This document shows positions 3,099-55,290 of a stretch of 64,000 nt of DNA, in pieces (positions within the stretch are counted from its first letter, which is position 1; every line of letters begins with the position of its first letter). Location: NCBI GenBank assembly GCA_964016885.1, contig OZ024741.1, positions 215,078,001-215,142,000 on the forward strand. Reading direction: 5' to 3'. This DNA is from Eledone cirrhosa (lineage: Eukaryota). The notes under the pieces were generated by a model. The model was not told the DNA's origin. It was given only the letters and a program-made list of their open reading frames with translations, and did not search any database. The translations under genes were made by a program, and so were the position numbers.

Positions 3099-5127
3099 CT
3101 AATGGATACACTTTAAACTACTAGAACCTTTAGGTTTATAATAAAAGTAAGAATTAGAAATAGTGTGGGGGCAAGAAGAGAATATCTCAGACTTTCTATT
3201 AAGTAAGGATTCGCTAGAGAAAATTATAGAGTGTGTCTCGAGGATACAGAGATTACAAAATTTAGTATGTGTAGAAAGGTTATTAGAGCGTGTTACTAAA
3301 CGCCAATTAAGGCTATATGGTATATTAGCCCCCTTAAGATCCCAGATATAGTGTGCTAAAGAAGTAGAATTCTTTAACTTAACATGTTTGAAATTAGATA
3401 TATGAGAATTAAACTTAGTCTTAAAAGTGTTAGATGTAGAGCCTATATAAGTTCTATTAGAGGAATTAGTTATAACTACGCAAGCATAGACGATGTTCTT
3501 AGAGAGGCAGTTACCGTTTAAAGGGCAGTTAGCACTCACTCTACAGTTACACTTCCGGGTGCTATTGGTTGGCTGAAGTGGTGATGCATTACACATAGGA
3601 TTGCTATTAGATAAGGTCTGTTCTGGTGGTAAGGCATTTCCAGATCTGTTCAGACTAGTAGTATGTAGAGAGGAGAATCCATCCCTAATTTTCCTATTGT
3701 TAGTGCTAGCTAAATGAGAACTAATATTAGGGGTGGTAGAGAATGAAAGTTTAATAACATTTTTATTAAAAATACTATGGTATTTATGAGAAGGGGGGAC
3801 ATTTTTCTCTAAGATAGAAAAGAAAGACCTAGGGATATTAGTTAATACTTCCTGATTATATGGCGGGTTAAAATAAGTATTTAGTCTCCTTCTATTTTTA
3901 TCCTTACCGACTCTACCATTATCTAATATCCCACTATCAAGACTAGGGTTACTACAAGGATTAGTTAAAACCGCATTATTAGAATCAGCCAAAATTCCAT
4001 TAAGTCTCCTACTGCTTCTACCTCCAGTAGATCTGCTGTCGTCTGGAATCCCATCAAAAGGATTAGGGCCAATAATAGGATCAGTAGAAGCAACATTATT
4101 AGAATTAGATCTAGCAAAATTATCACCAATGAGTGAGCGCTCAGAGGGTTCGACTTGTTTCCTAGAGGTATTATATTCCCTATTACGAGTCCCGTGGGTT
4201 AACTTATGGATGGGTTCAGATACACCTATGTAATTTTTACGGTTATTATGTTTCCTACACCCATTCATGGCCATGTTATGTGATATTATATTATGTTATT
4301 ATTATTATAAATAAGCGGAGACTTTCTAAGATTACTATTATTATAATGTATTGTACTAGAGTAACCGGAATTTGCTAGGGCATTATTATAGTACTCCGCA
4401 TGTTCATTAAATGTTCCTACGTCCTTAGAGAGTGTGGAAATCCTATTAGATACACCCTTAATTATAGAGCTTATCATAGATTTGGGGTGGTTAGAATTGG
4501 GACTAACATAAGAAAGTATTTCATTAGGCTTATGGAAGGGTTTAAAACTATTAGTGACCAAGTCCAAAGTCACATCTAAAAAGTTAACCGCTCTATCGTT
4601 TCTACCTATCGTGATCGAAAGATTATAGCCTTTAAAAAACTTATAAAGCTTCTTATTATTATGCTCGACATTGTTGGTGCTAGAGTTAATAACAAACAAT
4701 GCATCATCACGATATAGTCCGCCTTTAAGGTGCGGAAAGGTAACATATAGTTCATTTAGGAGGAACAAACCAACAAGATCAGTTACCTGGGCCGAATCAC
4801 TCGAACCCATTGTAACGTCGAAATTGTTGGGCGTGTTTTTACGGGTCCAAAATGTATCCTCAAATTTAATAATAGTTCTACGGGCTGCTAGTATAATATC
4901 TACCTGTGATCGTGTAAGGCTGGACACTCTCATGGCCAACATTAAAGCTTTATTGAGGAGGATGGGTGAAATCGATGTGTAGTAGGCATCAATATCGAAT
5001 TGGATAAACTTATTAGATTCAAGTTTATTAATCCCAGAGAACCAATCTATAACTTCCTTAGTGTTCCCCCATAGGTTAAAATTAACTTTATCCCTAACAT
5101 CTGGTATAATAAGGTCAAGGATTTTTT
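3099..5127 (-). pseudogene. PLE reverse transcriptase + GIY-YIG endonuclease (one frameshift at ~4280)
   Basis: RT motifs FIQFDIDAYY, FDVTMGSSD, GLYRDD, VNFLDVTL; linker CNCRVSANCPLNGNC; EN NIVY..TYIG..CNLCILE..LLNRKSE..CPH. The frame shifts within an (AAT)n-like linker. Confidence 0.92.
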
Positions 5128-5314
5128 TTTATATATATATATATAAGCAATGAGTTATTTAAATAGAACTCACAACATTAACTTCTAGTTTGAATATGTC
5201 ACTATCTGTAAACGAAATTTTGTATTTTATCGTACCAAAATTTTGGTAACCTTGAAATATATATAATAAAATAAATATGGTTTTATAAAGATGACTTCCA
5301 TTTATTAATATTAT

Positions 5315-5515: not shown

Positions 5516-5927
<412 letters not shown>

Positions 5928-6962
5928 GGGGATACACCGGCCCCACGCCCGAACTGTACGGTCGTTACATTGACGACTGCATCGGAGCCACGACCCTCAC
6001 CCGAGAACAGCTCGACTCCTTTCTCTCCTTCTTCTGCTCCTTCCACCCCTCCCTCCACTTCACCACTTCTATCTCCACCACCCACGTCGCCTTCGACCCC
6101 TCCCACCACTCCCTCGTCACCTCCTCCTTCTTCAAACCCACCAACTCCCACTCTTCCCACGACTTCACCTCTTCCCACCCCACCCACACTAAACACTCCA
6201 TTCCCTACTCCCAACTTCTCAGGATCCGCCGCCTCTGTAGCCGAGATGCTGACTTTGAGTCCCAGGCCCTTTCCCTAGTCAGCCATTTCATCCGCAGAGG
6301 TTACCCCCCCTCTCTCGTCCACACCGCTCTCACCCGCGCCCGCGCTGTCCCCCGCTCCACCACCCCTCCACCTTACCCCTCCACCGCACCATCCGCCGCC
6401 TCTTCCGACGCCTCCAGTCCGACCCCTCCACCTCCCACATCTTCCCAACACCACCACTCCCCCTCCTTCAAACGCGCACGCAATCTCCGCACCCTCCTCG
6501 TCCACAGCTCCCTACCCCCCAACCCACGCTCTGTTCCCCCCCCCCGGTTCCTTTCCCTGTTCTAGGCCCCGCTGCAACACCTGTCCCCACATCACCAACA
6601 CCACCACCTTCCAGGGTCCCAACGGCCACTCTCTCTCTGTCCGGCATGCCTTCCGCTGCACCTCCTCCAACCTAGTCTACGGACTTCGCTGCACGGAGTG
6701 CAGCGCGACTTATGTCGGACAGACGGGACGTCGCCTGGCGGACCGATTCACGGAGTACCTCCGGGATATTCGTCTCGGGGGTAGTTCCCCCATCGCCCGC
6801 CACTTTGGTGGCCCTGGACATTCCGCACGCCATCTCACAGTCTGTGGCCTACTCCAGTGCCACGGAACACCCGCCAATCGCCTTACGGTCGAACAACGAA
6901 CTATCTTCATCTTACAGACCCACACTCCCCCCGGCCTGAACTCCCCACCCTTATTCCTTTAG
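5928..6962 (+). pseudogene. Neptune PLE RT C-half + Cys linker + GIY-YIG (frameshifted/deleted)
   Basis: YGRYIDDCIG, KPTNSH, SSHPTHTKHSIPYSQLLRIRRLCS. After the poly-C frameshift: CSRPRCNTCPHI...CTSSNLVYGLRCTECSATYVGQTGRRLADRF...PPGLN, stop at about 6960. Confidence 0.88.
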
Positions 6963-9377: not shown

Positions 9378-9631
9378 GAATGAATAATACTTTCTTTATT
9401 TAATAATAATACTTTCTTTAATAATAACAGGTAGACATCATAAAAAGGTAATTTATTCCGAGTGCTTACAAATGTTTCAACACTAGTTATACAGCCTAGT
9501 CATGCTATTTGCAAATTGATAATTATTTGATTGCAGAAACTTAATTTTCAAATGCTGCTTCTACCGAGCAGAATGGTTAAAATGTAAATACCCTTGTATT
9601 TCTTAAAGGAAGTTATTGGGGACGATAGAGG

Positions 9632-10235: not shown

Positions 10236-11815
10236 TTAAGTTATTTTATAGTGAGAGAATTTAGCCTTCAGTTTGTGGTTGCAGTGTAACGATCGTTCGA
10301 TTCTGTTATTTAGTAATTTGTTTGAGGATTTTAAGAATAAAAAGAGTTCAAGGTTGCACAGTCTGCAGTACTTCAATCCACTCCGATATGTACTAGCGCT
10401 GGATAGTTTATCCCATTTCAAGGTGAACTGCCGGTTGCATTCTCGGAGTTGCCAGGTCTTATTTGCGAGCGTAGTCACAAGACGGTGTTTAGGATGCTTA
10501 ATCGAAAATCGATGACGATACCAGCGATATTTAAAGGAGGTACTGGTAGACCCGATGTAATACCATTTCTGGTCGTTCGATTCTACTGTGCATTGATAAA
10601 CAATGTTGGACTCTAGGCATTTGTTCTTCAATGGGCATCTTTCGGGTAGGTGGCAGTTGCAGTTTTTGTTGTGGGTAGCAGGTATACCATGGATAGGTTG
10701 GAATAACAGTTCAGGTGGGTTGTGCAATACCTGTCTCCCATTTGGTTGTTGGGAGGCCGATATTACGTTATGCTCATCCGTTACTAAATATTTTGTTTTG
10801 TAGTGTTGTTTAATAATTGTTTCTACTTTAGGCACAAGGCCAGCAATTATCCAGTGCATTACTGGTACTTTATTTTATCGACCCCGTAAGGATGAAAGGC
10901 AAAGTCAACCTCGGCGGGATTTGAACTCAGATCGTAAAGGGACGTAACTATGCTGGAAAGTACCGATACTGCCAATCCACCACCCTAGTGTTGTTTAATA
11001 ATAACTTTAAGTTAAGTTTTTTATGTATGCTTCAAGGATTGGTGCAGTGGAGTATGATAGCTTAATAGTCTTAGAGTTTAGAATCTTACTGTATTTATGG
11101 GAACTAGGGAAATGCTTGTTAATTAAAGAGATAGTTTTGTACTAATCGAAGCATTAAAACTGGGATTATACCAGATATACTTTCTACAACGTAATTTATT
11201 TGAGTTTGGTGATGATTTTCTATTATTAGTATGTCTGGTGGTACTGTGTGCGTGCGCTTGTATTTCTGTACCCCGGTTATATATTCTTTGATTGCGTGTG
11301 CAGCTATGTGTGTTATGGAGATTCTTATCAATGTATTCTATTTTATCCCGGTGGTCTGCATTCCTTAATGCGTTATTATAGTATTCAGCATGTTCACTGA
11401 AAATCTCAGAGTTAGACGTTAGGCGAGAGATTCTGAGAGAAATATTACGGGGAATCGATTTGATCACGGAAAGTGGGTGATTCGAATTAAAATTAATATA
11501 GGTAAGGTTCTCATTTATCTTGTGGAAGGGTCGTATCAGTCCAGTATTCAAATTAAGAGTTACGTCAAGAAAATTTACCACTTTCAGATTGTATTCGTAC
11601 GATATTTTTAGACCCAGTTCACTAAAAGGATTTCTAATGTTTTTCCGTAGCCTTTCAAGATTTTGGTTATTTAAGTTATTAACTAATAAAAGCGCGTCAT
11701 CTCTATATATTCCCCCCTGTAGAGTACTAAATGTTCCAAGATCCGTGACCTCCGCTGAGTCGTTAGAGCCCATGGTGATGTCGAAGTTTGTGGGTATGTC
11801 CCTACGTTCCCAGTA
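10236..11815 (-). pseudogene. PLE RT + GIY-YIG, interrupted by a SINE and frameshifts
   Basis: FDITMGSND, GIYRDD, VNFLDVTL, SNHP; CNCHLPERCPLKNKC, NIVY..YYIG, CRLCNLE..LLNN..CNH. Confidence 0.9.
10818..10985 (-). mobile_element. tRNA-derived SINE with Nin/Deu-like core, with TSD
   Basis: A box TGGCAGTATCGG, B box GAGTTCAAATCC, core CTTTGCCTTTCATCC..GTCGATAAAATAAAGTACCAG; direct repeat TAGTGTTGTTTAATAAT at 10801-10817 and 10986-11002. Confidence 0.9.
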
Positions 11816-11894
11816 GCAGTTATCTTCCTTTCTACTCTATCTTCCCCAATAACTTCCTTTAAGAAATACAAGGGTATTTACATTTTAACCATTC

Positions 11895-12011
11895 TGCTCT
11901 GAGGAAACGGTAGTGGCAGCATTTGAAAATTGAGTTTCTGCAATCAAATAATTACCAATTTGCACATAGCATGACTAGGCTGTATAACTACTGTTGAAAC
12001 ATTTGTAAGCA
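11895..12011 (+). ncRNA. Type I hammerhead ribozyme with ~90-nt stem II
   Basis: TGCT-CTGAGGA-AACGGTAGT...ACTACTGTT-GAAA-CATTTG-TA-AGCA. Confidence 0.78.
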
Positions 12012-12467
12012 CTCGGAATAAATAACCTGTTTATGATGTATACCTGTTATTATTCATTCTTTATCTACACTCCGAAATACAGAAGGATCAGAAACTGAGT
12101 TTTCCAACTATTCTTCCATAACTCGTTGAGTAACCCCTAACCGTACATCAACTCTATCTAGTGTAGTAATTAACCATTACTGCATTCGGGATAATCCTAA
12201 GCATTTCTAGCAAAACCTAATAATAATATATATATATATGTATATATATAGTATACTAGGATCGGAATTAAGAGTATTCCGCAGTTCACAGTAATAATAA
12301 TAATATTACCTCAAAGAAGAATAGAGAATTTTCTTCTGAGCTCAGATACAAATATATTACACAAATAGAAGTGTGTTACACAGTGAAATGTGTGTAAAGT
12401 ATTATACAAGTGATTTTTACCGTTACTGTATAGGAGGTTACATGTGTAGTAAACAGAAACCATATTT

Positions 12468-23452: not shown

Positions 23453-23585
23453 GTGTGAAAAACTACAAACCCTCCATCTCAATTCTACTTTTGAAAAGCA
23501 CAAGAACTGCGAAACCGGTGAAGGAACCAAATAAATATTTTTAAAAAGACTCCAGTTGTATTTTCGATTTCATCTTTTTTCCTTA
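23453..23585 (+). mobile_element. PLE pLTR family D (HHR 23487-23524, cleavage triplet mutated to GUG)
   Basis: Homologous to 32033-32180 and 55152-55290; CTT-TTGAAAA-GCA..TGC-GAAA-CCGG-TG-AAG. Confidence 0.72.
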
Positions 23586-23752
23586 TATATATATATATTG
23601 TTATACTTTGGGAGGGTCATGATGCCAATAAGAAACACACGCACCAGTTGCTTTCACTTCAATTTATTATATATTTATAAATTCATAAATTTATAAATTT
23701 ATAAATTTCTGGTTGGTTGGTTGATTCCACAACCAGATAGTTGTTTATATAT

Positions 23753-24560: not shown

Positions 24561-24601
<41 letters not shown>

Positions 24602-24636
24602 TATATTCATTTAACCTTTAAATATATATATATATA

Positions 24637-25070
24637 TATATTAATAAGAGGAATTCCAACTTTGTCTGATTTACTCGTTTTATTTACAATCCTTTAAAAT
24701 ATATATAATGGTATTATAATGAAATAGTATGATAGAATATTAAATTCTAAGTGTTAATTGAACAAGTACTTTCATGCTTTCGCAATCTTCAGGTTCATGA
24801 TATGTGGTGACAGTCGAGTTTGCAATTTTCAACTGTGAAAATTGCAAACTCGACTGTCACCACATATCATGAACCTGAAGATTGCGAAAGCATGAAAGTA
24901 CTTGTTCAATTAACACTTAGAATTTAATATTCTATCATACTATTTCATTATAATACCATTATATATATTTTAAAGGATTGTAAATAAAACGAGTAAATCA
25001 GACAAAGTTGGTATTCCTCTTATTAATATAATCTTCTATACACAATCATACACACCCGTGTATATTTACC
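24637..25070. mobile_element. Family C head-to-head pLTR palindrome (arms 24637-24831 and 24836-25030, plus tail)
   Basis: About 195-bp arms with one visible mismatch and a 4-bp spacer; HHRs at 24759-24797 (-) and 24870-24908 (+). Confidence 0.9.
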
Positions 25071-25072
25071 TA

Positions 25073-25164
<92 letters not shown>

Positions 25165-27170: not shown

Positions 27171-27224
27171 TCACTGAATATAATTGTACAGAAAAACAAG
27201 TTACCGATGTATCTCACAAAGACA

Positions 27225-30200
27225 TACATAGACTGACACACACAGGCAGACACATACACACACACAGGCAGACACATACATACACACACACACAGGCAGA
27301 CACATACACTAATACACAGGCAGACGCATACACACACACAGGCAGACACATACACTAACACACAGGCAGACGCATACACACACACAGGCAGACACATACA
27401 CACACACACAGGCAGACACATACACTCACACACACAGGCAGACACATACACACACACACAGGCAGACACGTACACACACACACAGGCAGACACATACACT
27501 CACACACAGGCAGACACATACACTCACACACACAGGCAGACACATACACTCACACACAGGCAGACACATACACTCACACACACAGGCAGACACATACACT
27601 CACACACAGGCAGACACATACACTCACACACAGGCAGACACATACACTCACACACACAGGCAGACACATACACTCACACACATAGGCAGACACATACACT
27701 CACACACAGGCAGACACATACACTCACACACAGGCAGACACATACACTCACACACAGAGGCAGACACATACACTCACACACACAGGCAGACACATACACT
27801 CACACACAGGCAGACACATACACTCACACACACAGGCAGACACATACACTCACACACACAGGCAGACACATACACTCACACACAGGCAGACACATACACT
27901 CACACACAGGCAGACACATACACTCACACACACAGGCAGACACATACACTCACACACACAGGCAGACACATACACACACACACACAGGCAGACACATACA
28001 CACACACACATAGGCAGACACATACACTCACACACAGGCAGACACATACACTCACACACAGGCAGACACATAGACTCACACACAGGCAGACACATACACT
28101 CACACACAGGCAGACACATACACTCACACACACAGGCAGACACATACACTCACACACACAGGCAGACACATACACACACACACACAGGCAGACACATACA
28201 CTCACACACACAGGCAGACACATACACTCACACACAGGCAGACACATACACTCACACACACAGGCAGACACATACACTCACACACACAGGCAGACACATA
28301 CACACACACAAGCAGACACATACACACACACAGGCAGACACATACACACACACACAGGCAGACACATACACTAACACACAGGCAGACGCATACACACACA
28401 CACACAGGCAGACACATACACTCACACACACTGGCAGACACATACACACACACACAGGCAGACAGATACACTCACACACACAGGCAGACACGTACACACA
28501 CACACAGGCAGACACATACACTCACACACAGGCAGACACATACACTCACACACACAGGCAGACACATACACTCACACACACAGGCAGACACATACACTCA
28601 CACACACAGGCAGACACATACACACACACAGGCAGACACATACACTCACACGCACAGGCAGACACATACACTCACACACAGGCATACACATACACACACA
28701 CACAGGCAGACACATACACTCACACACACAGGCAGAAACATACACTCACACGCACAGGCAGACACATACACTCACACACAGGCAGACACATACACACACA
28801 CACAGGCAGACACATACACGCACACACACAGGCAGAAACATACACTCACACACACAGGCAGACACATACACTCACACACAGGCAGACACATACTCACACA
28901 CACAGGCAGACACATACACTCACACACACAGGCAGACACATACACTCACACACAGGCAGACACATACTCACACACACAGGCAGACACATACACTCACACA
29001 CAGGCAGACACATACACTCACACACACAGGCAGACACATACACTCACACACAGGCAGACACATACACTCACACACAGGCAGACACATACTCACACACACA
29101 GGCAGACACATACACTCACACACACAGGCAGAAACATACACTCACACACAGGCAGACACATACACACACACACACAGGCAGACACATACACACACACACA
29201 CAGGCAGACACATACACACACACAGGCAGACACATACACTCACACACAGGCAGACACATACACGCACACACAGGCAGACACATACACTCACACACACAGG
29301 CAGACACATACGCTCACACACAGGCTGACACATACACTCACACACACAGGCAGACACATACACACACACAAGCAGACACATACACACACACAGGCAGACA
29401 CATACACACACACACAGGCAGACACATACACACACACAGGCAGACACATACACACACACACAGGCAGACACATACACACACACAGGCAGACACATACACT
29501 CACACACAGGCAGACACATACACTCACACACACAGGCAGACGCATACACACACACACAGGCAGACACATACACACACACACAGGCAGACACATACACTCA
29601 CACAGACAGGCAGACACGTACACACACACACAGGCAGACACATACACTCATACACAGGCAGACACATGCACTCACACACACAGGCAGACACATACACTCA
29701 CACACACAGGCAGACACATACACTCACAGACAGGCAGACACATACACACACACACAGGCAGACACATACACTCACACACACAGGCAGACACATACGCTCA
29801 CACGCACAGGCAGACACATACACTCACACACAGGCAGACACATACTCACACACACAGGCAGACACATACACTCACACACACAGGCAGAAACATACACTCA
29901 CACACAGGCAGACACATACACACACACACACAGGCAGACACATACACACACACAGGCAGACACATACACACACACACAGGCAGACACATACACTCACACA
30001 CAGGCAGACACATACACGCACACACAGGCAGACACATACACTCACACACACAGGCAGACACATACACTCACACACAGGCAGACACATACACACACACACA
30101 CAGGAAGACACACACACACACACACACACAGGCAGACACATACACACACACACAGGCAGACACATACACACACACACACAGGCAGACACATACACACACA

Positions 30201-30900
30201 CACAGGCAGACACATACACTCACACACAGGCAGACACATACTCACACACACAGGCAGACACATACACTCACACACAGGCAGACACATACACGCACACACA
30301 CAGGCAGACGCATACACTCACACGCACAGGCAGACACATACACACTCACACACACAGGCAGACACATACACTCACACACACAGGCAGACACATACACTCA
30401 CACACACAGGCAGACACATACACTCACACACAGGCAGACACATACACACACACACAGGCAGACACATACACTCACACACACAGGCAGACACATACACTCA
30501 CACACAGGCAGACACATACTCACACACACAGGCAGACACATACACTCACACACAGGCAGACACATACACACATACACAGACAGAAACATACACTCACACA
30601 CAGGCAGACACATACACACACACACACAGGCAGACACATACACACACACAGGCAGACACATACACACACACACAGGCAGACACATACACTCACACACAGG
30701 CAGACACATACACGCACACACAGGCAGACACATACACTCACACACACAGGCAGACACATACACTCACACACAGGCAGACACACACACACACACACACAGG
30801 CAGACACATACACACACACACACAGGCAGACACATACACACACACACGGGCAGACACATACACTCACACACACAGGCAGACACATACACGCACACACACA
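27225..30900. repeat. Minisatellite, ~20-26-bp unit (CA)n-GGCAGACACATACACT
   Basis: About 3.7 kb of tandem copies with a variable (CA) spacer. Confidence 0.97.
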
Positions 30901-31412
30901 CAGACACACACGTATGCTATATATACCAAGAGATATATATACACAATGACATACACATACAGAGACTACATACACCCACATACATACACACAGAGACACA
31001 TGAACACACACATACAAATACACAGTCACACACGTATAATATATATACCAAAAGATAACACACAAAGACATACACACACGTATAATATATATACCAAGCG
31101 ATAACACACAGAGACATAACACACACACACACACACACATATATGAACACAGACACACATACACACATAGATACACACACATATACTATATATACCAAGA
31201 GACATACAAAGGCATACACACACATACACACACAGACACACACATACATAGACACAAACACACAGTCACACACACAGGTACACACATACACACACACACA
31301 CACACACGTATACTATATATACCAAGAGATAACACACAAAGACACACACACACAGACAAACACACAGACACACACATACATAGACACAAACACACAATCA
31401 CACACACAGGTA

Positions 31413-31447
<35 letters not shown>

Positions 31448-31560
31448 GTATACTATATATACCAAGAGATAACACACACAGACACACACAAACAGACAAA
31501 TACACAGACACACATATACACAAACATACACATACAAACACAATCACACACAAGTATACT
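30900..31560. repeat. Degenerate CA-rich repeat with recurring CGTATACTATATATACCAAGAGAT motif
   Basis: The motif recurs at about 30911, 31034, 31079, 31181, 31307 and 31448. Confidence 0.75.
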
Positions 31561-31830: not shown

Positions 31831-32171
31831 GTGAAGTTTTTTTTACAAAATGAAAAATAACCGAGGTGTCCTACACGAGTGAAAGTATAAAGAAAAAGAG
31901 ATGAAATCGAAAATGCAACTGGAGTCTTATTTTTTTTAAAATATATATATTTATTTGGTTCCTTTACCGGTTTCGCAGTTCTTCTGTTTTTCAAAAGGTG
32001 AGTTGAGATGGAGGGTCTGTGGTTTTTCTCGTGAGAAAAACCACAGAGCCTCCATCTCAACTCACCTTTTGAAAAACAGAAGAACTGCGAAACCGGTAAA
32101 GGAACCAAATAAATATATATATTTTTAAAAAAAATAAGACTCCAGTTGCATTTTCGATTTCATCACTTTTT

Positions 32172-32180
<9 letters not shown>
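31824..32180. mobile_element. Family D pLTR palindrome (arms 31886-32030 and 32033-32179, tail 31824-31885)
   Basis: HHRs at 31961-31998 (-) and 32065-32102 (+): CCTT-TTGAAAA-ACAG aagaa CTGC-GAAA-CCGG-TA-AAGG; (TA)n flanks. Confidence 0.88.
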
Positions 32181-32253
<73 letters not shown>

Positions 32254-32356
32254 AGAAATGTAAGCTATCGCCGTATTTTGACAAAAGAAATTAAAGAAAT
32301 TATTTAGCCTGATAGTGGGGTTAAGAACCCTCGGAGAAATGGAAAAAGGTGAGTAT

Positions 32357-32428
32357 TGACGTACATGGGAGTCGAACCCACATCTTTGTTTATCCGGACC
32401 GCTGTACTACCATTTACACCAACACATC
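32357..32428 (-). ncRNA. tRNA-like cloverleaf, inverted copy
   Basis: Minus strand: GATGTGTTGGTGTAAATGGTAGTACAGCGGTCCGGATAAACAAAGATGTGGGTTCGACTCCCATGTACGTCA. Confidence 0.7.
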
Positions 32429-32461
32429 ACCCTGATGTGTTGGTGTAAATGGTAGCACAGT

Positions 32462-32533
32462 GATGTGTTGGTCTAAATGGTATCACAGTGGTCCGGATAA
32501 CCAAAGATGTGGGTTCGACTTCCATGTACGTCA
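32462..32533 (+). ncRNA. tRNA-like cloverleaf (not a canonical tRNA gene)
   Basis: Acceptor GATGTGT/GTACGTC, A box TGGTC/GTAAATGG, anticodon arm TGGT-CCGGATA-ACCA, T arm GTGGG-TTCGACT-TCCAT; lacks U33. Confidence 0.7.
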
Positions 32534-32786
32534 ATACTCATCTTTTTCCATTTCTCCGAGGGTTCTTAACCCCACTATCAGGCTAAATAATTTCATTAAT
32601 TTCTTTAGTCAAAGTACGGCGATAGCTTACATTTCTAATAATTTCAAACCCACTCGCTGTTTCGAAAATATTCTTACTATATATATATATATATATATTA
32701 TGATATATATATACATACATAGACACATACATACATGTATACATACATGCATAGATACATACGTGTATCTATGTATACATGTGTAT

Positions 32787-37516: not shown

Positions 37517-37543
37517 CGATAGATAGATAGATACATTCATTTA

Positions 37544-37609
<66 letters not shown>

Positions 37610-37740
37610 GATAAATCTACCAAGAGTTTACGGTAGTGTCCAATCCGTATGAAGAACTCAATGTATTCCGGATATCATGGAAAGAAGAGATGTAATGAAA
37701 AATCACTTTCGGTGAAAGATAAACGGTATACAGAGTCAAG

Positions 37741-38214
37741 ATAAAATATTAAACAAATAATGAATAAACAATTCCTTATATTAAACAAAAAAAGTTCATT
37801 ATTTAACGATCGTTTCTAGGATATATATGTGTTAGAATTGGTATGCATATTCAACAGATCTATGTACAAAATTATACAAAATTATACAAATTATCAAGAT
37901 TAAATATACATACCAACACATATATACGCCGTCTTCAGAAATAATGAAGTATATTTATTGATAATAACAACAATTCAAAATTTCAGGTCCGTTTGGGAAC
38001 AAAATTGACCAATGAAAACACAAAGGGTTAAATGCAGTTCGGTGTGTGTATATACATGTAAAACCCTTACACATATTTTACAAAAATGTATGTATAATTT
38101 GTATACGCATACTAAAAGGATGGATGCAAATACAAAATTTCAAGGTTAATGTCTCTGTAAGTTTATAATGCACAGATAAGATGCGTATTGACACAAGTAT
38201 GAAATTAAGTATAT

Positions 38215-38246
<32 letters not shown>

Positions 38247-38612
38247 TTTCATACTCACACATATCCGTACAATCACACATACACGCGCGTATATGCATAA
38301 ATATACACATAACCACGAACATACAAACACACACACACCCCCACTCACATTTATATATGTGGATATAAAATCATAAGCACATGGATATTAATTCACTCAC
38401 ATAAAACACTGGCACACACATTTTTAGATCAAGATACAGAAATTAGGTGGGAGGGGGGGGAGAGGTCAGTATTCAACGGTCTGAGCAGACTGCCTAATAT
38501 AGATGTATCTATAAACTAAGAAAATAAAAATAAAAAATAATAAATAAACATTAAAGAGGAAAGAATAGAAAGAAAAAAGAAAAAAGAAAAAAGAAAAAAG
38601 AAATATATCAAG

Positions 38613-38656
<44 letters not shown>

Positions 38657-38865
38657 CACATATATATATATATATATATACACACACATATATATATAAT
38701 ATACATATATATACACATAGACACACACACACATATATAAATATACACACATATACAAACACATACATACATATACACACATCCACACTAAGAACATACA
38801 TACACACACATATATAAACATATACATATACACACATACATACATACACACATATACATACAAAT

Positions 38866-38916
<51 letters not shown>

Positions 38917-39544
38917 TATGTATATACACGTACATATACACACACATATACATATAATCACACATACTATATAGACACACATATATATAACCACACACAT
39001 ACATGCACATATACAACACTTACATACTAATATACATACAGATATACACATACATAGCTATATATACACACAAATATATACAGACTTACATATATACATA
39101 CAGACAAATACTTACGCATCTATATATCGGTATATACATACAAACACCACTACACTATCACACAACTTAGAAATACAAAGAGAAAGGTATATACCTATAC
39201 ACACATACATATACAAATAGAAAAACATATAGATATATATATATATATATATACACACACATATATATATACATATATATATATAACATATATATATACA
39301 TATATATACACATACATATACACATACACACACATACACATACACACACATACATACATGTACACACACATAGAAATATATACGCATACACACATACACA
39401 CATACATATAAAGTCATACACACACAAACACCTACACGAACATACACATACACATATATAAAGATATATATACACACACACACACACACAACACATACAC
39501 ACATACACATATATATAAAAAAAATAAATAATAAAGATATATAC

Positions 39545-39599
<55 letters not shown>

Positions 39600-39946
39600 C
39601 ACATATATATACATACACATACACACACACATACATAGACATACATGTACATACATACACGTACATCGATATACATACATATATATATACACACATAGAC
39701 ATATACATACATACACACACAACTTACATACACACATATATATACATGTATATTCATACATAGAATTAGATATATAATCATACATACATATGCACTTACT
39801 TATACTCATATATACAAATACATACGCATCCATATATGCGTATATACATAAAAACACAACTACAACCTCACCTAACTCAGACATACAAATAAAAATAAAA
39901 AGGCATATGTATATACATACATACACGCATTAATAGAGACATATAT

Positions 39947-40018
<72 letters not shown>

Positions 40019-40261
40019 ATTCATATATATATATATATATAGATACCCACACACACATACCACCATAAATACACATACAAACACCCACATATACATATAT
40101 ATACACACGTATATATATATATATATATACACACACATAAAAAACAGACATGCACATATATATATATTTTTTTACACTTATATATACACATATTATATAC
40201 ACATACACAACCTCACATATACACATATACACATAAGTTATATTATAATAATAAAAAAAAA

Positions 40262-40316
<55 letters not shown>

Positions 40317-40403
40317 CATATATATATATATATATAGATATAAACATATACATACATATATACACACATACGAATATAGACATATAATCACACATAGACA
40401 CCC

Positions 40404-40438
<35 letters not shown>

Positions 40439-40685
40439 TACATATACACAGACACATATACACACTCACATATATATGTGTGTGCACACACACATATATA
40501 CACACATACACATATATACACATAAACACATATATGTGCATACATGCACACACACACACATATATCACATAGATACGAAGATAGACATATAAATAGAGAG
40601 ACATACATATATATACAACACACATACACACACATACATACACACACATATACACATACATATATATATATATATATTTCTATAT

Positions 40686-40716
<31 letters not shown>

Positions 40717-41851
40717 TACACATATATATACATACACATATACATACACACATTCACATACACATACATATATACATGCATATATACACATATATACATA
40801 CATACACACACTCATATATACACACACAATCTTACATTCATATTTGCATGCGCATATATGTATTTTTATATTCAGATATAAATACCCAAACCTATATAGA
40901 CACCTACCTACATATATATTCATACATACACGCTTACAAATACAGATGATAATAGTATGGGGGAAAGGGGGGGGTTTGGAGAAGGGGATCATAGTAAATA
41001 TATGTTTCAAGAAACATAGAATATTTTCCGTATCTTGATCCAATGTATGTTTTTACATAGTTTCAGTGTTAGGAAATACAATAAACAAGAACTAAGGCAA
41101 AATCTATGCATCTCAAAATAAACAAGTATACCATTAATTATATGTTAACTAAACCAAAGATAGTTAACATATTGATTTCTAAGGTGTAAATTAGTTAGGT
41201 TTATAATATTTGAAGCAGAATTTTGAAGTTAAATAGTAGTAGAGTATTAATTATAGTATAACTAAATTAAAGTTAATAACGTTATGGTATCAATATTAGG
41301 AAATGAATTTAGTAATAGGGAAAAAACAAATAAAATAAAGTATTACATCGGTAGTAGAATATAAATTATAGGTTAACTAAATTAAAAATTATATATTTAT
41401 TTCTATAGTATATGTTAATTAGGTATATAATACATAAAACAGATATTGTATTTTATCAATAGCATAATATAATTATATGCAAATAGACATCAAAATTAAT
41501 ACATATACATATACATATACATACACATACATATATACATATATATACACATATATATATATATACATATATACACATATACATACACACACACATACAC
41601 ATACACATATACATATACATATCTTTTTCAAAAAATTGCATAGAATATATTAACTAGGTATATATCCAAAACACATCCCATTCTATGATTACATGACTTT
41701 CTGCAATTCGTCTGTATAAGGATACTAATTTTAAGCAAATTAAAATTAAATTTTTAGGTTGATTAAAATTAAAACCAAATTATAAATATATTTCTAAAAT
41801 GTATATTAATTAGGTCTATAATACTAAAAATTATTTCTCTGTCATTGGATA
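37741..41851 (-). repeat. Left inverted arm (pLTR copy)
   Basis: Mirror of 43780-47937; the ORF track shows identical peptides on opposite strands. Confidence 0.95.
37795..37948 (-). ncRNA. Type I HHR with long stem II, inverted copy
   Basis: Reverse complement of 47730-47883. Confidence 0.82.
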
Positions 41852-41852
41852 A

Positions 41853-43547
41853 CAATTTGATATAGATAATTACTATTCTTCTATATCACCTATACTCCTG
41901 AACAAAGCATTGATATTTGCTAAAAATAGATCTAACTTAACTTTGGATGACATTAATATTATTACACATGCTAGACTAACACTTATTGAATTTCAGAATG
42001 AATACTGGACCAGAAACACATATAGTAATCTTTTTGATATTACTATGGGTTCAAGCGATTCCGCCCAAATTACTGATCTTGTGGGCCTCTTTCTCCTTTT
42101 CAACATAAATGCCTCTTTTCCCCACCTCAAAGGTGGTTTATATCGTGATGACTGTCTTCTTCTTTCTAACAACCTTAGCCTTTCAGAAATTGAAAAAAAC
42201 AAAAAACATATTAGAACTTTCCTTAAAGACTATTATAATCTTAATATTACTTTTGAAAAAACAAGTAAAGTAGTAAATTTCCTAGATATAACTTTAGATT
42301 TAGCTACGGGTATCTACCAACCTTACCATAAACCTAACCAAAACTTACATTACATACACTCACAATCTAATCACCCTAAATCTATCCTTAAAAACCTTGC
42401 ATATAATATATCACTTAGAATTTCTAACCTTTCTTCTAACCAAGATGTATTTGATAAAAATGCGACCTTCTATAACGAAGCTCTAGATAGAAGTGGCCAC
42501 AAAAATAGATTAGAGTATATACCTTCTACTAAAAATACTGAAAGCATACAACATAATATTACCAACAAACACCAAATGAAAAGTACACACCTAAATGCCA
42601 CCCACACTATACCCCAAAATACCAAATCTTCTAATATAAAGTATAGTAACTCTCAAAAAACTACTCATCATACAACTCTAATAAATATTAATAATAAAAC
42701 TCCTAATAAAAAGGATAAAACACCTAAATCTACAAATATAACTAAAAATAGTTGTGGTGAGATCATTAACATTAATCCTCCTAGTAAAAATCACGATACA
42801 ACCTATAAAAATAATAAAAATAATAAACAACATAGAAACCGTAATAGACGGGTTACTTGGTATAATGCTCCTTTTAATTTACAAGTTAAGGATAATATTG
42901 CTAAAAAATTTTTTTATATCCTTGGGAAAAACTTCCCGCCAAACCACAAATACCATCAAATCTTAAATAGGTCTACAGTTAAATTCTCATACTCTACAAC
43001 AAATAACATAAAACAAAATATAAGTGCTTATAATGCATATAAATGTAAGAAAACCATAAGTATACCACCAGTACATCAAATTAACCATAATATCTCCTCA
43101 AATACAGAATTAACGAAAGGATGTAACTGTAGAAACAAAGCAAACTGCCCATTAAAAGGGAATTGTCTTGTTAACAACATAGTCTATAAATGTAATGTTA
43201 AAACTAAAGATTCTATTTGCTCATATATAGGAGCTACCTCTAACAATTTTAAGACAAAGTTTAATACCCACAAGCATAGTTTTAAAAATGCCGCACTGGC
43301 TAATACAACATCTCTAGCAGAAAAAATCAATAGTTATAAAAATAAGAATATAGAATATGATTTGACCTGGAGTGTGCTCAAAAGAGCCACCCCTTATCAA
43401 AATAATAGAAATGAATGTAGATTATGTTCCCAAGAACTATTTGAAATAATGAAGTCTAAGGATATCTTATTAAATAAACGACAGGAATTAATTATATCGT
43501 GTAATCATAAATTAAAAAAAACATTTAAATATTATAAACCTAATTAA
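41853..43547 (+). CDS. 5'-truncated but uninterrupted PLE RT + GIY-YIG reading frame
   Basis: Open from QFDIDNYY through FDITMGSSD, GLYRDD, VNFLDITL, WYNAPF, CNCRNKANCPLKGNC, NIVY..SYIG, CRLCSQE, LLNKRQE..CNH to the stop; no native start codon. Confidence 0.93.
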   Translation, partial: QFDIDNYYSSISPILLNKALIFAKNRSNLTLDDINIITHARLTLIEFQNEYWTRNTYSNLFDITMGSSDSAQITDLVGLFLLFNINASFPHLKGGLYRDDCLLLSNNLSLSEIEKNKKHIRTFLKDYYNLNITFEKTSKVVNFLDITLDLATGIYQPYHKPNQNLHYIHSQSNHPKSILKNLAYNISLRISNLSSNQDVFDKNATFYNEALDRSGHKNRLEYIPSTKNTESIQHNITNKHQMKSTHLNATHTIPQNTKSSNIKYSNSQKTTHHTTLININNKTPNKKDKTPKSTNITKNSCGEIININPPSKNHDTTYKNNKNNKQHRNRNRRVTWYNAPFNLQVKDNIAKKFFYILGKNFPPNHKYHQILNRSTVKFSYSTTNNIKQNISAYNAYKCKKTISIPPVHQINHNISSNTELTKGCNCRNKANCPLKGNCLVNNIVYKCNVKTKDSICSYIGATSNNFKTKFNTHKHSFKNAALANTTSLAEKINSYKNKNIEYDLTWSVLKRATPYQNNRNECRLCSQELFEIMKSKDILLNKRQELIISCNHKLKKTFKYYKPN

Positions 43548-43779
43548 TAACATTATTTTAGAAATTAATTTAATTTAAATGTTATTTAACCTATAAATTT
43601 AATTTAATTAAAATTTTATTACAGATGAGAATATAAAATATTATGTAATCATAAATTGTGAAAAACCTTTAAATATTACTAATATATACTTAGTAATTTA
43701 ATTTATAGATTAATTTTAATTTATTTAAACCTTTTATTATAATTCTTTTACAGATAAAATATAACAAAATAACATCGTG

Positions 43780-48098
<4,319 letters not shown>

Positions 48099-48129
48099 CA
48101 TTTATATATATATATGTATATATAATATA

Positions 48130-55113: not shown

Positions 55114-55151
<38 letters not shown>

Positions 55152-55153
<2 letters not shown>

Positions 55154-55290
55154 AAAGGGAAAAAGATGAAATCGAAAATGCAACTGGAGTCTTTTTAAGA
55201 ATATTTATTTGTTTCTTTTACCGGTTTCACAGTTCTTATGCTTTTCAAAAGTAGAGTTGAGATGGAGAGTTTGTGGCTCTTCTCGCATCT
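55152..55290 (-). mobile_element. PLE pLTR family D (HHR 55215-55252)
   Basis: Homologous to 31886-32030; TTGAAAA core. Confidence 0.75.

Follow-up and report, generated by a model that had tools for sequence, protein, structure and literature searches.

A palindromic repeat in the genome of Eledone cirrhosa resembles an insertion of a Penelope-like element (PLE) and carries a tRNA-like cloverleaf at the position where neighbouring palindromes have hammerhead-like cores (for example at 24875, 34480 and 33502 of the window, the whole 64,000-nt stretch of DNA that was analysed). Which machinery moves this repeat, and what is the cloverleaf doing in it?

The window copy consists of two inverted arms of 183 nt (32248–32430 and 32460–32642; 95% complementarity) that stand head to head. 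In the coordinates of the repeating unit, numbered from the first base of the cloverleaf, the left arm comprises nt −4 to 181 (32248–32432, reverse strand) and ends at a short 3′ start site, and the right arm comprises nt 1–217 (32462–32678, forward strand) and ends at a long one, with nt 218–271 missing. The left arm is shorter than the right by 36–38 nt, and the stretch separating the two preferred 3′ ends (32643–32678, forward strand) is equivalent to a PLE-type tail. Both sides are occupied by the putative (TA)n target (32175–32249 and 32678–32699), in which a target site duplication (TSD) is not distinguishable, and the copy has no poly-A. A T5 run lies at 32543–32547, about 10 nt past the right-arm cloverleaf. 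The head-to-head arms, the tail of the longer arm, the (TA)n flanks, the lack of poly-A and the T5 run were noted in a preliminary description of the locus and stand, as does a third, abortive head in the centre, a direct duplicate of 28 nt (nt −1 to 28; 32433–32461, forward strand). The same description had all heads starting at one base; their starts differ, at −4, −1 and −2 counted from cloverleaf nt 1. The final GT of the third head is leader nt −2/−1, as could result from slippage across a microhomology of 2 nt. Copies like that of the window are in the minority: both arms end at the head in just 2/63 and 0/38 loci of two ordered samples.

A first look at the 3.0-Gb genome gave 1,539 candidates for the window arm. 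Exact matches to three internal motifs number 1,566, 4,326 and 5,148 genome-wide (0 for reversed controls), and correction for divergence, based on 99 of 180 arms matching the motif exactly, leads to about 9,400 arms, or roughly 9,000. The family is non-coding and is arranged in tandem and inverted arrays of up to about 28 units, which adjoin directly with no internal part between them. Three subfamilies have monomers of 271, 290 and 259 nt, and copies are on average 94% identical to their own subfamily. The cloverleaf is internal to the monomer: the unit extends 54 nt upstream of the head beyond the window arm, and these nucleotides link nt 217 to the next head. A metagenome scan for the element returned 0 matches.

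Is the cloverleaf real? In the window, both copies score narrowly below the Rfam gathering score of 29 for RF00005 (right arm, 32462–32533, forward strand, 26.5 bits; left arm, 32357–32428, reverse strand, 25.6 bits). ARAGORN calls no tRNA in the window, and folding of its heads in isolation does not surpass that of shuffled sequences (z of +0.19 and +1.49), so the window copies by themselves are weak evidence for the fold. The family settles the matter in favour of the 72-nt tRNA-like fold originally proposed: ARAGORN calls a tRNA in 48/60 family loci, and Rfam gives 30 matches above the cut-off, reaching 47.6 bits, across 7 loci. The A and B boxes (nt 8–19 and 51–61 of the right-arm cloverleaf) are kept in all subfamilies. 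Between subfamilies the cloverleaf is the most conserved part of the unit, and its changes fall mostly in loops or preserve pairing. A working tRNA gene is ruled out by the variable anticodon (gga, cga or tga in the ARAGORN calls); the anticodon stem is also incomplete, with pair 27–43 open in 14/16 aligned copies and restored in a further variant.

The hammerhead core motif CTGAnGA..GAAA is absent from both strands of doubled monomers, and no ribozyme family is among the Rfam matches to the window or the family loci, in agreement with the initial failure to see a hammerhead. A genome search for a parent tRNA gave 16 matches only, which comprise tRNA-Thr genes and a second tRNA-like repeat; none resembles the element (pairwise scores were not used in this judgement). 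The Thr matches include genes and pseudogenes that are closely packed in tandem (L248 and L250; C1:243.65–243.68 Mb). The other repeat (L249, L251–L258) is dispersed, is called as Ala, Val, Thr or Asp with varying anticodons, reaches 60–71 bits in Rfam and is probably a SINE head.

Outside the cloverleaf, leader nt −1 to −18 of the preceding unit are predicted to pair with trailer nt 75–92, including the T5 run (32536–32553, forward strand), in an 18-bp helix that leaves a 3-nt bulge at the discriminator. All three subfamilies have the helix in their predicted folds, where it varies mainly by A-to-G changes opposite U (46 copies). It would clamp the cloverleaf, and can only close where the end of one unit meets the next head, as in a multimer or a circle. 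A further predicted stem, nt 155–161/193–199 (32616–32660, forward strand), has one compensatory C-G/T-A change between subfamilies and holds the short 3′ start site (nt 179–181) in its loop. Across 16 aligned copies, 92.5% of cells pair in the predicted fold. Most of the support for the pairing comes from invariance and G-U pairs, and covariation is thin: 3/57 pairs change on both sides, none of them convincingly within the cloverleaf. Two circular monomers fold little better than shuffled sequences (z of −1.6 and −0.6). ADAR editing as the source of the A-to-G changes was rejected, as the changes do not favour one strand (A>G 0.80%, T>C 0.98%).

Two motifs served to sample insertions in their order along the chromosomes (74 + 60), and 7 loci that repeat an insertion and 3 apparent segmental duplicates were dropped before counting; one long array (L074) was excluded from base-level walks. 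Head-to-head inversion is found in 92/134 insertions, and tandem read-through is common. The 3′ ends cluster at nt 171–187 and 211–227. When ends are classed as long (nt 205–230) or short (nt 160–187), the 91 insertions with outward-facing ends comprise 73 long/short pairs, 2 short/short and 0 long/long. A (TA)4 lies within 24 nt of 182 of the 225 outer 3′ ends, against a background of 10%, and the family has neither poly-A nor a simple-repeat tail of its own. Most copies are (TA)n-embedded inverted pairs with tails, as anticipated from the single locus, and not the ordinary single-orientation SINEs with LINE-type tails that would have spoken against it. Craig et al. list a tail, tandem or inverted copies and (TA)n targets as PLE signatures (PMC8557442), and Frangieh et al. 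explain the tail, in vitro, as the stretch lying between two internal sites from which the reverse transcriptase (RT) starts, on both strands of the DNA (PMC11167929). The insertion statistics match both, so that mobilisation by Penelope-type rather than LINE machinery, one of the two original proposals, is well supported.

The 5′ ends give a different picture from that expected. If the element began at the cloverleaf, either as a SINE or as an RNA bounded by RNase P/Z, its ends would pile up there; instead the unit continues upstream of the head, and most arms that reach the head run through it. In a downstream-anchored sample of 93 arms, 40/73 stop at nt 58–73, mostly at 62–63, in the 3′ strands of the T-stem and the acceptor stem (32519–32534 of the right arm, forward strand). 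Stops at nt 58–65 account for 25/58, compared with 3% for each 8 nt at positions more upstream (p about 1e-22). The T-arm stops arise equally from both start sites (21 short, 19 long), indicating that the stop is set by position on the RNA and not by distance. About two thirds of arms lack most of the cloverleaf. At the head itself, 4/24 head-reaching arms of the same sample, which was not selected on the tRNA, stop at −6 to +9, and in a tRNA-anchored sample 15/75 arms stop there versus 12% in equal upstream windows (p=0.03). These stops make up a weak pile-up that is spread over −6 to +10 with no sharp +1 peak, and about 80% of head-reaching arms read on into the previous unit. The template thus usually continues past the head and is multimeric or circular.

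Genome-wide counts of 21-mers agree, falling 2.8-fold across the T-arm (5,148 at nt 66–86, 1,842 at nt 40–60) and scarcely at all across the head (1,891 at nt 15–37, 1,792 in the leader). The corresponding forward-strand counts (2,551, 772, 791 and 502) allow a modest excess of stops at the head. An apparent pile-up at the head in the first 30 loci (22/37 arms at −6 to +9) was discarded: those loci had been ranked by similarity to the window arm and were biased, the position-ordered samples disagreed, and they are left out of the end counts.

The T-arm stop could be caused by the tertiary fold (the tRNA elbow), by m1A58 modification or by cleavage in the T-loop. The zone contains three overlapping 4-nt palindromes that favour joining there and probably fix the exact junction. 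Misincorporation expected of m1A58 finds no support, with 4/100 rows differing at A58 and 1/100 at a control A, and 3/151 differences at A58 within loci that were partly selected on that base. Excision by RNase P and Z with re-ligation was also rejected, as a genome-wide search with one exact pattern found 0 tRNA-less junctions.

Rare variants are shared by 19.5% between tandem units of one arm and by 19.1% between the two arms of one insertion, compared with 1.9% between different insertions. This is expected if one unit is copied repeatedly, and a young tandem source would also give it.

Long arrays are also present. Those at L074 (C1:131.459–131.466 Mb) and L243–L246 (C3:191.35 and C3:271.50 Mb) hold about 17–28 monomers, which are only 85–87% alike and radiate star-like from the consensus; at L074, (TA)n ends and an inversion of the left arm give the array the form of a single insertion. 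Such arrays are hard to reconcile with the strong T-arm stop. The leader motif is counted 1,290 times on the reverse strand and 502 times on the forward strand, and the T-arm and D-arm motifs have a reverse-strand surplus of about 300, which suggests a large, unlocated array of a variant unit. Fragments of other SINE-like repeats lie at junctions inside the element at L059 and L080, and stem from template switching or from insertions that came later.

PLEs abound in the genome (10,595 GIY-YIG candidates). At 50 GIY-YIG loci, all of the C-terminal-endonuclease type where an ORF was readable, we found no tRNA and no significant similarity to the monomer. A PLE ORF joined to the element occurs in 0/184 loci (RT-like matches are present in 34, none abutting). 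Naiads have no hammerhead, use (TA)n targets and are present in Octopus (PMC8557442), and the supplements of that paper hold Naiad consensus sequences from Octopus, which may help to identify an autonomous partner.

The window contains further PLE sequence. The palindrome at 24563–25125 carries a hammerhead and represents the pLTR of an autonomous PLE family with C-terminal GIY-YIG; at L218 this sequence lies downstream of the ORF, and its tail measures about 60 nt. An adjacent palindrome family (31886–32178, 23457–23587 and 55141–55289) has a core like that of a degenerate hammerhead; its tail measures about 60 nt, and its short end resembles nt 77–92 of the tRNA-like element (15/16 matches, E about 0.6, possibly by chance). 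A 4.3-kb inverted repeat with 96% identity (37527–48123) encloses a 564-aa PLE RT-endonuclease frame (41853–43547). More broken PLE-type RT/GIY-YIG frames lie at 3099–5128, 5903–6962 and 10236–11836, the last enclosed by inverted repeats at 9420–9630 and 11835–12054. Pfam identified no family in the PLE RT frames of the window. A CA-rich minisatellite with a 24-nt unit occupies 4.3 kb at 27215–31552.

The closest known systems include the metazoan non-LTR retrozymes (Cervera and de la Pena 2020), for which a type I hammerhead, RtcB-type ligation and mobilisation by PLEs via circular RNA have been described or proposed (PMC7229834, PMC7761336). Those are low-GC non-coding monomers of 170–400 nt, found as dimers to long multimers, a range that includes the 259, 271 and 290 nt seen here; unlike them, the element has a tRNA-like fold and no hammerhead. 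It shares with non-autonomous PLEs (Chlamys MRC1, PMC8557442; PAc, PMC11167929) head-to-tail multimers, an inverted 5′ copy, an optional 30–40-nt tail from two RT start sites and AT-rich or (TA)n targets. It differs from them in its tRNA module, of which the available portions of those papers describe no counterpart, and in a 3′ end that matched no autonomous family among the 50 GIY-YIG loci. The hammerhead is found in the pLTR of canonical PLE clades and is absent from Naiad and Chlamys elements, as it is here.

Two other groups combine small-RNA-derived sequence with a retroelement. Helenus, Ajax and Cassandra (TRIMp3; Kojima 2024, PMC10886601) carry it within the terminal repeat of a non-autonomous element, but are LTR elements with PBS, PPT and 4–5-bp TSDs moved by Gypsy or Copia; in place of two LTRs around a PBS and PPT, our element has abutting units and ends in (TA)n. 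The word Penelope is absent from Kojima 2024. tRNA SINEs such as octopus OK, OR1 and OR2 (Ohshima and Okada 1994) likewise have an A/B-box tRNA region, an unrelated body and thousands of copies; they begin at the tRNA, however, and are single-orientation monomers with LINE-type tails. OR1 and OR2, CORE-SINEs in the citing literature, are set apart from the element by description only. The element thus works like a non-LTR retrozyme or non-autonomous PLE, with no hammerhead to make it a retrozyme and an internal tRNA and inverted or tandem copies that separate it from SINEs.

Our best reading, which we hold at about an even chance, is a non-autonomous, retrozyme-like passenger of PLEs that has a circular or multimeric RNA template and in which a tRNA mimic replaces the ribozyme. 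Its first part is very probable: mobilisation in trans by a PLE RT/endonuclease, with two primers, stalling at the T-arm and microhomology joining. A PLE RT/GIY-YIG protein would nick both (TA)n strands, and cDNA synthesis would begin at two positions inside the unit, nt ~181 and ~217–223, which are separated by about 38 nt and comparable to those of Anolis PAc in vitro. Both cDNAs would be extended toward the cloverleaf, over half would halt on reaching the T-arm or shortly within it, and their ends would be joined into head-to-head arms.

The second part falls a little short of probable. Here the cloverleaf would take the place of the hammerhead as a processing module recognised and cut by the host: occasional RNase P cuts of read-through transcripts would yield unit-length RNA, and the 18-bp leader–trailer helix would keep the two unit ends in place, forming a nicked or ligated circle for the RT to copy around. 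RNase P cutting survives only as a means of defining or circularising the RNA unit, and not as the usual insertion end. A role for RNase P is weakened by the inhibition of this enzyme through extensive leader–trailer pairing (PMC9705548), in which nt −1 of the element takes part, although cutting at a low rate would suit the frequent read-through. The pattern expected of circles is equally expected of multimeric RNA transcribed from a young tandem, and for PAc the main substrate is unprocessed multimeric RNA (PMC11167929). The complete scheme, in which the tRNA mimic and host RNase P produce unit RNAs, the clamp closes them into a circle and the PLE RT copies that circle, is doubtful.

The main rival keeps PLE mobilisation and makes the tRNA part an internal Pol III promoter and nothing more, with transcripts that start at about −4 and read through the T5 run into following units. 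Such an element would be the PLE counterpart of SINEs and of Helenus and Cassandra, with a precedent in the tRNA-like sequence in the LTRs of Helenus (PMC10886601). The intact A and B boxes of all subfamilies favour it, as does the minority of 5′ ends at −4 to −1, a plausible start, which includes all three window heads. T5 only ten nt past the cloverleaf should halt most Pol III transcripts, and this weakens the rival: with about 80% of head-reaching arms continuing upstream, the run would have to be read through repeatedly. A promoter alone also leaves the kept stems and the 18-bp clamp unexplained, and we consider this reading unlikely.

It is less likely again that the head is a functionless passenger, captured from a tRNA or SINE by a non-autonomous PLE repeat of the ordinary kind, and that folding produces the T-arm stop as no more than a by-product. 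That most arms lack most of the cloverleaf would then be unsurprising, short non-autonomous PLEs are already known, PAc insertion in vitro is independent of ribozyme cutting (PMC11167929) and covariation is thin. Against this, every full monomer seen has the cloverleaf, so that only cloverleaf-bearing units can be sources, and the cloverleaf is the part most conserved across subfamilies, its pairing kept via G-U with no decay. In the last reading the element is a common tRNA SINE moved by LINEs, or a satellite, whose inversions arose later at the DNA level; in its favour are the tRNA SINEs that form the main repeats of octopus genomes (PMC8967140) and the arrays of about 17–28 units. This reading is very improbable and is largely refuted by the insertion geometry, namely the frequent inversion with its strict long/short end rule, together with the absence of a poly-A or own simple-repeat tail and a tRNA internal to the repeating unit.

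We conclude that the element is a real variant of non-autonomous PLE that looks previously unrecognised. The full-text literature that we searched contains no tRNA-derived element on PLE machinery; Repbase, Dfam and subscription papers lay outside that search, and the element may be catalogued in Repbase or Dfam as a SINE or unknown repeat. Its roughly 9,000 arms inflate tRNA gene calls, as the ARAGORN results illustrate, and make it liable to misfiling as a SINE. It also offers a natural substrate of 270 nt for questions about PLEs: the purpose of the hammerhead, the circularity of the template and the cis signals that are read in trans. If the element does prove to be a retrozyme without a ribozyme, it would form a third arm of small-RNA-derived parasites (SINEs on LINEs, TRIMp3 on LTR elements and this element on PLEs) and would reveal a route to circular RNA independent of both ribozymes and splicing. 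Its thousands of T-arm stops would then be a genomic record of the tRNA elbow, or of m1A58, on the template.
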